A stretch of DNA of 64,000 bases from Escherichia coli (GTDB taxonomy: Bacteria; Pseudomonadota; Gammaproteobacteria; Enterobacterales; Enterobacteriaceae), in NCBI RefSeq assembly GCF_041248615.1, contig NZ_CP158426.1. One strand, 5' to 3'. The notes under the pieces are model-generated. The model saw only the letters and a program-made list of their open reading frames with translations. It had not been told where the DNA came from and searched no databases. Made by a program: the position numbers and the translations under genes. Position 1 is the stretch's first letter. Every line of letters starts with the position of its first letter. This document shows, in pieces, positions 26,309 to 28,266 of the stretch.

Positions 26309-26350
26309 GAAAAGGCATTTACACAGAATCCTAAACAGGCTCCAACAACA

Positions 26351-26420
26351 TAATATATTGAGCCTGTTTACCATTCTCTGTTAATGCCTTCTCTTAAAAG
26401 TGACCGTCCAAGCGGTCACT
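26351..26420 (-). mobile_element. Diverged IS256-family terminal fragment
   Basis: GAGCCTGTTTACCATTCTCTGTTAATGCC...GTGACCGTCCAAGCGGTCAC resembles the IS end plus the last transposase codons. Confidence 0.4.
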
Positions 26421-26995
26421 GATTACCCATTCTTAATTCAGTGCAGGATTAAAATATATGTGCAAAATAATTTAATTCAGACAGCTTTTTATTTCACTAT
26501 GGCTATCCCAGATATCGACGACGGATGAAAAGTGGCTCTTACGCAACCTGGATGGAGATTTTCATGCCAGTGGACTCATGACCCTCTGTCTGAGTAGTTC
26601 AAATCCGGCTCGACCATACATCTGGCCTTTCAGCATTTTTAGTCTATTTACATGACTTTCGACAACCCCCATTATTCCAGCGACTGCTGATTGCCTCACA
26701 TATAGCCGCAGCATCAGCTGCCATCCTTGCAGCCACGCGCCGAAGTTACCACTTTCTCGTTGCTCTTTTAACCACTCCCTCCATGGGGCCAGAAGTCCTC
26801 GCTCTGGAGGCCGGGTTGACATTTCAGGGAATGTTCCTGAACACACCCAGAGACTGACTGTCACACGTGATAAGCCTGTAATACGGGATACGGCCTGATT
26901 GTATCCAATCTGGAAGAAAAGTTTCATGATTTTATGGGCGTTATCCTTATGGTGCTGGGCGACGAGAGTAATACTTCACGCCGGTTTTGTCGGAT

Positions 26996-27018
26996 AATCC
27001 AGAAATATAGGGGCAAAT
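26996..27018 (+). mobile_element. Solo IS2 right-end fragment
   Basis: CCAGAAATATAGGGGCAAATCCA matches the terminal 23 bp of the recalled IS2 IRR. Confidence 0.45.
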
Positions 27019-27330
27019 CCAAACAGGAAAGATAGGGGGAGGGACGCGTTTCCGGCACAACCAGCGTTACGTCACCCTGCATTGTTAGTTACGAAAAGCG
27101 TACCGGAAACGCGGAACATTCTTTTAACACATTACAGGCATTCGCACACATCTTTTTTCTTCTTTGTGCTCTGAACACTGCAGTGCTCAATTAATATTAG
27201 CCACGTTTTACAGTAAGAACGGTATCTGTTCTCTGATTCTTCCGGCGTCAACCCACAGTGTAATTATGAGGCCTGACGCTATTGTAATAATTCAGAATAT
27301 AACAGCTAGTTACCGATTCAGACTCGAGGT

Positions 27331-28081
27331 TTATTTAAGAATCCATACCTGCTCGGCCTCCAGCACAGAAAACCGACACTCAAGCAGACTCGGCAGGCTG
27401 GTATGCTCCTGGCGGGCATTTTTGTACTGATATTTTCCGGGCTGAGCACTTCTCAGGTTCAGATGCTTCATCAGCCGCCTGGCACGACAACTGCTCATCG
27501 GGATACCATTTTGAATCAGCATATCTGCCAGAGCACGCGCACCTGCGGAACCCCGACTCTGGTTCCAGACCCGGACTGTTTCGCTATACAATTTGATTCG
27601 CGCCGGATCAATCGTATTGAGCCGATTCTGCCAGTGCCGGAACTGCTGCAATGAGCATCCAGAGCAGCGCAAAGACTGACAATCGTGTGTCGCCGCTCAG
27701 TCTGGTAACTATCGTAAACCGTTCAGTGGGAAGGATATCAAGAGCACTGTAGCTTTTTAATATCGTTTTTTGTTCCTCCAGGCGACGAACCTGCTTTTCC
27801 AGTTCATGAATACGTTGCTACTCTGATGTGAGTGGTGATGCAGAAGACGTGGTATCCTGACGTTCCCGCCTGAGCTGACGTACCCATGCCCCCCAGTGTA
27901 TAGGAACCGACATTCATAGCTTTGGCGGCATCTGCAACTGTGTAGTTCTGGTCAACAACCAGTTGAGCGGATTCGCGTTTAAACTCTGCGCTAAAATTTC
28001 TTTTTTTCATTAGGGCACCAGTCTTGTTCTGAGGTGAGCATATCACCTCTGTTCAGGTGACCAAATTCAGTGTGCCATTTC
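27331..28081 (-). mobile_element. IS911-like (IS3 family) 5' remnant: IRL, orfA (frameshifted), orfB N-terminus
   Basis: End rc TGAAATGGCACACTGAATTTGGTCACC; Orf[33 protein letters not shown]...; OrfB fragment ends ...AEQVW. Confidence 0.6.
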
Positions 28082-28099
28082 AGTCTGTAATGCGCTGTG

Positions 28100-28266
28100 T
28101 GAAAAAGCTCACTGACAGTCTGAGTATTTGTCTGCAAAGGATGGAAGCCCGTCGAGGGTTCCTGAAAACCACTGGTGCGCTGGCGAATAAGCTGACAAGA
28201 ATCATCTGGCGTGTTTTGAGCGATAGTATTGATTTTAATATGCAGAAGGCCGTTGTGATGAATTAA
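28100..28266 (+). pseudogene. IS110-family transposase C-terminal fragment
   Basis: ...ARRGFLKTTGALANKLTRIIWRVLSD... typical IS110 C-terminus. Confidence 0.4.

Follow-up and report, generated by a model that had tools for sequence, protein, structure and literature searches.

A mosaic of insertion sequence remnants next to phoX in an Escherichia coli genomic island, and the steps that probably built it

How does a stretch of about 2 kb come to hold pieces of several insertion sequences (IS) and no intact gene? We addressed this question in a 64,000-nucleotide stretch of Escherichia coli DNA (contig NZ_CP158426.1; hereafter the window, whose coordinates are used throughout). A sequence-only reading of positions 26350-28266 had described a junction zone of at least four IS remnants (a diverged IS256-type end, a solo IS2 right end, an IS911-like 5' half and an IS110-type C-terminal fragment) and had taken them as signs of repeated IS-mediated deletions or inversions. 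All four remnants exist, but the count was too low: mapped remnants span 26343-28511 and comprise five IS families plus a scrap of a group II intron (Table 1), and every junction in the zone is a truncation. An ISL3 fragment, the intron scrap and an abutting, intact, strain-specific IS1414 had been overlooked. The absence of an intact gene holds, as the only RefSeq calls within the coordinates of that reading are two pseudogenes, 26562-26891 and 27343-28046, both on the minus strand and both labelled 'transposase'. We regard it as very probable that the zone, built stepwise within an E. coli genomic island, is a junkyard of mobile-element remnants without function, and a working protein is not expected from any part of it.

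The core of the argument is an IS3-family element (27179-28082) that keeps both terminal repeats, with its right tip at 27179 and its left tip at 28082 when compared with two reference loci, L006 from strain CEA224S and L015 from Klebsiella aerogenes plasmid pYD-K10_1. This is the element that had been read as an IS911-like 5' half: its orfB frame does end at ...AEQVW (followed by ILK and a stop codon), but both ends are present, and only 28082-27907 is IS911-like. Identity over these ~176 bp is 93-94% to the left end of elements classed by RefSeq as IS911 family or IS3 family and 90% to ISEc52; Pfam HTH_Tnp_1 is matched as well (E 1e-4). The likeness to IS911 (IS3 family, IS3 group) covers the left terminal repeat, the first ~30 orfA codons and a two-ORF (open reading frame) layout with HTH domains, and does not run along the whole element. 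Beyond 27907 the sequence belongs to another IS3-family lineage, for which we use the working label IS3-x, and 27922-27343 has no nucleotide similarity to the IS911-like reference. The IS3-x body is 87-92% identical to the CEA224S copy and 76-85% to the intact copy on pYD-K10_1; for the 3' end (27179-27307) the figures are 91.9% to L006 4834-4968 and 85% to L015 2925-3046. The segment 27343-27922, which matches Pfam HTH_21 (E 1e-8), is 99.3% identical in ColV plasmids. The element also differs from IS911 in having lost the DDE core, in carrying the intron scrap and in having a right repeat unlike its left one. Terminal repeats, HTH_Tnp_1 and HTH_21 are all present, while the rve core, present in the intact L015 relative, is deleted here: by descent the element is an incomplete IS3-family member. 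Its flanks (GAC and GTG in the orientation of the element) form no target duplication.

Other strains keep the two halves of this chimera apart. In the ColV plasmids L005 and L014 the stretch 26891-27922 is found at 99.3% identity, joined to a different IS3 5' end; both in these plasmids and in strain SMS-3-5 (which matches 27319-27922) a different, native-type 5' continuation is found beyond 27922. Strain 26561 matches the window from 27907 on, and leftward continues as a longer IS911-like element. In a three-way alignment the window agrees with the ColV type as far as ...CATTCATAGCTT, and from there with the 26561 type. This alignment with both parental arrangements shows the chimera to be the crossover product of two different IS3-family elements within the 16 nt that they have in common, 27907-27922. 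The junction itself is a fact; the mechanism of the crossover is uncertain. The product can also be found outside the window, since strain SLK172 matches from 26891 on and carries the chimera next to the flank of a LysR-family gene.

The IS3-x half had been damaged as well. Between 27307 and 27343, ~440 bp of orfB including the DDE catalytic core are lost and replaced by ~35 nt attributable to the 5' region of a group II intron, with no more of that intron remaining. The assignment rests on the intermediate state in SMS-3-5. There the IS3-x sequence of the window (99.8% identity over 27319-27922) continues past ...GTATGG into ~100 nt that resemble a group II intron adjoining ltrA in two loci (89% identity to intron positions 20-119). 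The window retains two short pieces of this SMS-3-5-type intron sequence. Such introns are found in related elements too: one with ltrA interrupts IS911-family elements at GDVTYI codons in other E. coli strains (L016 2539-3750; L019 4676-6855), and it is a diverged copy of the 5' region of this same ltrA intron that is fused to IS3-x in SMS-3-5.

Table 1. Features mapped in and beside the zone (window coordinates).
Feature	Position	Strand	Basis
Intact IS1414 (IS256 family)	25028-26342	+	RefSeq annotation; ends and target duplication read directly
IS1414-like (IS256 family) right-end remnant	26360-26422	-	63 nt aligned at 85.7% with the right end of IS1414 (E 6.5e-15)
84-bp spacer between IS256-type remnant and ISL3 end	26423-26506		Matches confined to genomes with the whole zone
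ISEc38-like ISL3-family 3' fragment: right terminal repeat and C-terminal transposase part	26507-26890	-	tblastn and nucleotide alignment
Non-IS sequence of 111 bp, left part of block 26891-27178	26891-27001		99.3-99.5% contiguous alignments from 26891
Solo IS2 right terminal repeat tip, outer end at 27021	27002-27021	+	20/20 nt to MG1655 IS2A 1312-1331
157 bp from IS2 tip to IS3-family right repeat	27022-27178		Always accompanies 26891-27021
IS3-x 3' end: right terminal repeat TGCAGTGCTCAATTAATATTAGCCAC (tip 27179) and last orfB codons (...YILNYYNSVRPHNYTVG...)	27179-27307	-	End alignments, translation
Group II intron 5'-region scrap filling the ~440-bp deletion	27308-27342	-	Credible via SMS-3-5 intermediate
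IS3-x 5' body: frameshifted orfA and N-terminal part of orfB	27343-27922	-	86.7% to L006, 79% to L015
IS911/ISEc52-like left end: terminal repeat TGAAATGGCACACTGAATTTGGTCACC (tip 28082) and first ~30 orfA codons	27907-28082	-	93-94% identity
IS1111-type (IS110 family) element, 3' 422 bp	28083-28504	+	Protein and nucleotide homology
Last 61 transposase codons of IS1111-type element	28083-28266	+	85% protein identity to IS110-family transposase
Downstream non-coding region of IS1111-type element, ~240 nt	28267-28504	+	Nucleotide homology to intact relative
Guide-like segments	28379-28387, 28448-28457	+	Junction repeats
Subterminal repeat GGGACGTCCAT	28491-28501	+	Followed by 3-bp terminal extension ATA
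Heptamer TGCTCAA flanking the IS1111-type right tip (28504)	28505-28511	+	Junction comparison of window with L015

To the left of the chimera lies a block of 288 bp (26891-27178) whose parts always occur together (238 records at 99% identity or more). It contains the solo IS2 right end, which had been given as 23 bp and proved to be 20 exact nucleotides long, a match reproduced in none of 100 shuffles. Only the sequence of the right terminal repeat is there: an IS2 body was sought beside the tip, and local alignment of 26891-27001 with IS2 was no better than for shuffles. In ColV-type plasmids and in SLK172, 26891-27001 continues leftward into the region downstream of the LysR-family gene, and 26891 is therefore a breakpoint peculiar to the window's lineage. 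The alternative that 26891 marks the end of an element was rejected, as the plasmid flank to its left shows no ISL3 similarity. Between the IS2 tip and the chimera, a 14-bp inverted repeat (pair I3; CGCGTTTCCGGCAC at 27045-27058 and GTACCGGAAACGCG at 27100-27113) encloses a 41-nt spacer; folding of 27022-27178 was no better than that of shuffled sequences (z -0.62), and no family matched around 27045-27113.

At the breakpoint the window switches to an ISL3 fragment. A minus-strand ORF (26562-26927) matches the C-termini of ISL3-family transposases by tblastn, and 26507-26890 holds both the terminal repeat (...ACGACGGATGAAAAGTGGCTCTT...) and the C-terminal part of a transposase of the kind found in ISEc38, whose protein carries the DDE_Tnp_ISL3 domain. 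Over the last ~365 bp, terminal repeat included, the fragment is 90-94% identical to ISEc38, in two pieces (26528-26747 at 90% and 26746-26890 at 94%), and so has suffered a 347-bp internal deletion. The copy on p1ColV5155 matches 26507-26890 contiguously at 97.4%, hence the deletion is common to both. The fragment further differs from ISEc38 in missing the first ~1 kb of its 5' part, its homology ending abruptly at 26890 in the junction alignment. Pfam, run on the small ORFs, was silent on this tail and on the IS110 tail described below, both of which were identified by tblastn and nucleotide comparison.

The left edge of the zone carries IS256-family sequence of two ages. The diverged IS256-type end was correctly recognised by the sequence-only reading: 26360-26422 combines the terminal inverted repeat with the 3' end of a Mutator-type transposase gene, its minus strand encoding ...DRLDGHF and a stop codon, the last residues of the IS1414 transposase. 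Further extension at the protein level was sought and DRLDGHF was all that was found. Seventeen nucleotides away, and inverted relative to it, stands the intact IS1414, whose transposase matches Pfam Transposase_mut (E 3e-119); the remnant pairs with the right end of this copy as an inverted-repeat pair (I1, 86% complementary). Over its 63 bp the remnant agrees with the IS1414 right end at 86% of positions; being diverged and truncated, it comes from a related but older element, not the present copy. The intact IS1414 is flanked by the 8-bp target duplication CAACAACA (25020-25027 and 26343-26350), and has altered the last codons of an SgcJ/EcaC gene from ...VVPTT to ...VVPTTEPVHRFV, each followed by a stop. 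The region 26300-28600 is 100% identical to the chromosome of E. coli isolate NRZ14408 (NZ_LT599825.1, where the window occupies record positions 2435672-2499671). Only NRZ14408 matches from query base 1 and all other listed complete genomes start at base 43, which makes this IS1414 strain-specific; it is also absent at this site in ECCNB12-2. The spacer that separates the old IS256-type end from the ISL3 fragment matched no Rfam family at gathering score.

To the right of the chimera, the IS911-like left end cuts an IS1111-type element of the IS110 family at 28083, so that its left part is missing. The IS110-type C-terminal fragment of the sequence-only reading is the first piece of what remains: its last 61 codons, the only ones in the window, are 85% identical to an IS110-family transposase that carries the DEDD_Tnp_IS110 and Transposase_20 domains. 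Nucleotide homology runs further, at 92.8-92.9% over 28083-28511 to an intact element on K. aerogenes pYD-K10_1, and the remnant therefore includes the ~240-nt non-coding region downstream of the gene. IS1111-type elements are defined by subterminal inverted repeats, 7-bp left and 3-bp right extensions and a long non-coding region downstream of tnp (PMC11187229). The intact L015 element has all of these (subterminal repeats ATGGACGyCC, extensions TGATGTG and ATA, a long non-coding region downstream of the gene) along with a short 5' end, and belongs in the IS1111 subgroup; the extensions were scored in L015, and the window keeps the right-hand features. On pYD-K10_1 this intact element interrupts the right terminal repeat of an IS3-x copy, with TGTAG on one side and TGGTCAAG on the other. 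In the window, the heptamer beyond the right tip of the remnant is the same as positions 6-12 in the right terminal repeat of the local IS3-x, the site at which the intact relative is inserted in such a repeat. The IS1111-type element may originally have lain within a full IS3-x terminal repeat.

The non-coding region of the intact element repeats both insertion junctions, as TGTAGTGAT and ATATATGGTC (L015 1571-2924), and the window keeps TGTAGTGAT at 28379 and ATATATGGTC at 28448. These repeats resemble guide segments such as a seekRNA or bridge RNA would carry, and their apparent target, TGTAG^TGGTC, is the tip of the IS3-family right terminal repeat. Judging from the sequences, the element might be an undescribed RNA-guided IS programmed for that tip, of which the window would hold a remnant with a complete guide-RNA region; we put this forward tentatively, as a possibility that is more doubtful than probable. 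Among known systems, the closest comparison is with IS4321 and IS5075 (IS1111 family), whose targets are the terminal repeats of transposons of the Tn21 family (Partridge & Hall 2003, as cited in PMC11187229). The intact relative resembles them in its subterminal repeats, its 7-bp and 3-bp extensions and its downstream non-coding region, and like them it occupies a fixed site in a terminal repeat that belongs to another mobile element; it differs in that the target is an IS3-family right repeat and not a Tn21-family repeat. The copy in the window differs further in being a 3' fragment with 7 nt of its target left.

Another IS110-group element is found in the window at 6864-8093, with an internal stop and with its long non-coding region upstream of the gene. 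Its host is an ISEc52/IS911-type orfB, which it enters at the DQGSHY codons, and an intact copy 96% identical to it in CEA224S (L006 3313-4968) splits the orfB of IS3-x at the same motif. This suggests that it has a conserved target inside IS3-family transposase genes.

How, then, was the zone assembled? Comparison with other strains, which the sequence-only reading had proposed as the way to reconstruct the rearrangements, did yield intermediate states, in ColV plasmids, SMS-3-5, 26561 and SLK172. The comparison shows that an IS1111-type element stood upstream of phoX and received an IS911-like element in its transposase gene, the state kept in 26561. A separate IS3-x took up a group II intron in orfB, and a deletion then removed most of the intron together with the catalytic core; this IS3-x adjoined the IS2 tip and the LysR-downstream region, as is still the case in the ColV plasmids, SMS-3-5 keeping an earlier state. 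We infer the order of these two steps. The crossover between the IS911-like element and IS3-x in their common 16-nt orfA stretch (27907-27922) joined both arrangements, and SLK172 keeps the outcome. In the lineage of the window, the LysR side was next replaced at 26890/26891 by the interior of an ISEc38-like element, already internally deleted, that adjoins the older IS256-type end. Last, and in NRZ14408 alone, came the insertion of an intact IS1414, 17 bp away from the old end and accompanied by a clean 8-bp duplication. The deletions probably arose by an illegitimate or microhomology-mediated mechanism.

Several points weigh against this account. For RecA-dependent recombination, a shared stretch of 16 identical bases is short. 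A handful of genomes, with no strain phylogeny, supplies the order of events, so that some 'intermediates' could be independent derivatives. Two spacers, of 84 bp (26423-26506) and 157 bp (27022-27178), have no assigned origin, and the intron in the window is identified from ~35 nt that are credible solely through SMS-3-5.

A mosaic like this one could be suspected of being mis-joined repeats in a single assembly, since misassembly is common in repeat-rich regions and the record represents one isolate; the sequence-only reading itself had named assembly error as what could overturn it. This is contradicted by the genomes: a 100% identical 26342-28600 is found in no fewer than 29 further complete genomes, which are of poultry, pig, human and wild-bird origin and come from different laboratories, hosts and countries. 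The stretch is covered to at least 80% in 53 complete genomes, and sub-blocks of the zone recur in more than 200 records. Given identity across at least 29 independent complete genomes, the zone is not an assembly artefact, an explanation whose probability we set close to nil. A non-IS origin of the fragments, the other way in which the reading could have failed, is likewise contradicted, the listed remnants having been matched to named or intact IS references. In the sequence-only reading the remnants pointed to IS-mediated deletions or inversions, and its mention of a separate orfB fragment at 8092-8230 on the other strand implied that this fragment and the local orfB could be parts of one element split by inversion. 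The fragment exists (8092-8235, a 48-residue peptide), is on the plus strand while the local orfB is on the minus strand, and falls within the part of orfB that is missing locally; both are pieces of IS3-family orfB. Yet 8092-8229 is 93.5% identical to the ISEc52/IS911 type and only 76-80% to IS3-x, while the local orfB has no nucleotide similarity to the IS911-like reference, and on these grounds of lineage we rejected the fragment as the missing core of the local element. Moreover, the local deletion is filled by the intron scrap, the local element keeps its own 3' end, the distant fragment is the right flank of the different IS110-group element at 6864-8093, and the same deleted element is found on ColV plasmids, which do not have the island. 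An inversion between the two IS1414 copies of the window was rejected too, because both have intact 8-bp target duplications, and none of the other junctions in the zone requires one. A single element split by inversion is thus very improbable. What is documented are nested insertions (the IS911-like element into the IS1111-type transposase gene, the group II intron into an IS3 orfB, IS1414 beside the older IS256-type end), internal and adjacent deletions and one crossover, so the deletions of the earlier reading stand and its inversions find no evidence.

One might also ask if part of the zone has been retained for a function, be it a guide RNA of the IS1111-type remnant acting in trans or promoter and regulatory sequence for phoX, which starts 184 bp downstream of the remnant. 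The non-coding region is complete to the tip of the element and 93% identical to that of the intact copy, with both guide-like segments kept; other E. coli loci have fragments, at 87-94% identity, that begin near 28326-28329, and the arrangement of remnant and phoX is conserved in 94 genomes. This conservation is nevertheless explained by recent common descent, with identities of 98.5-100% across the whole region. No intact cognate transposase gene was found in the window, this fragment being the only one, and no Rfam family matched: a scan of 26300-28700 at a permissive threshold returned two sub-threshold chance matches and nothing else. We consider retention for function improbable, and prefer to see the zone as a stepwise-built junkyard.

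The setting is in keeping with such a junkyard. In the RefSeq annotation of the whole window, broken IS66, IS21/IS100, IS110, IS3, IS630, IS5 and IS256 elements surround iha, ibrB, phoX and the remnants of an iron ABC transporter, and the boundary of the island is a tyrosine recombinase gene adjoining ynjA. The zone does not differ in kind from the IS-rich regions of E. coli pathogenicity islands and of ColV/ColBM virulence plasmids, with which it shares densely nested fragments of IS1414, IS2, IS3-family, ISL3, IS110, IS66 and IS21 elements clustered around virulence and fitness genes (here iha and phoX); among 5,426 complete genomes, only about 53-58 have the fragments in this order. With ColV-type plasmids it has one sub-block of 1,032 bp in common at 99.3%. 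The zone is ordinary, and parts of it were already annotated as pseudogenes.

Other IS debris is scattered through the window. A frameshifted 3' fragment of a diverged IS2-group element (23954-24395; 73.6% to IS2 over 284 nt) is followed, after its stop codon, by a diverged IS2-like right repeat near 24360-24390, as read by eye; this fragment is distinct from the solo tip of IS2 at 27002-27021. Two orphan ends were also seen, an IS2-like right end on the minus strand at 40186-40234 (87.8% over 49 nt) and a 34-nt IS1414-like left-end piece at 787-819 (91%). The intact IS1414 at 25028-26342 has a twin at 32320-33634, 100% identical and in inverted orientation, each copy with its own perfect 8-bp duplication (CAACAACA and CAACTGTC, respectively). 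The pair brackets 26343-32319, a segment of IS junk, phoX and ABC-transporter remnants, and both copies are absent in ECCNB12-2; it can be viewed as a strain-specific arrangement resembling a composite transposon, or as a substrate for inversion.

Taken together, the observation made from the sequence alone was largely right in substance and wrong in several details, and its interpretation, right in spirit, is partly supported. Beyond annotation the significance is slight: two generic 'transposase' pseudogene calls are refined into a precise map. The by-products are modest, namely an IS-IS crossover and IS110/IS1111-type elements that target other insertion sequences. The zone documents how DNA is exchanged and reshuffled between islands and ColV plasmids via insertion sequences, and in this strain the IS1414 pair could mobilise or invert a 6-kb segment containing the zone and phoX. 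The chimera offers a clear example from nature of how two different IS3-family elements can cross over at a 16-nt common stretch. Of wider interest are the IS110/IS1111-type elements whose targets are other insertion sequences: if the guide-like segments are what they resemble, the IS1111-type remnant and the second IS110-group element of the window would illustrate elements of this group specialised on other insertion sequences.

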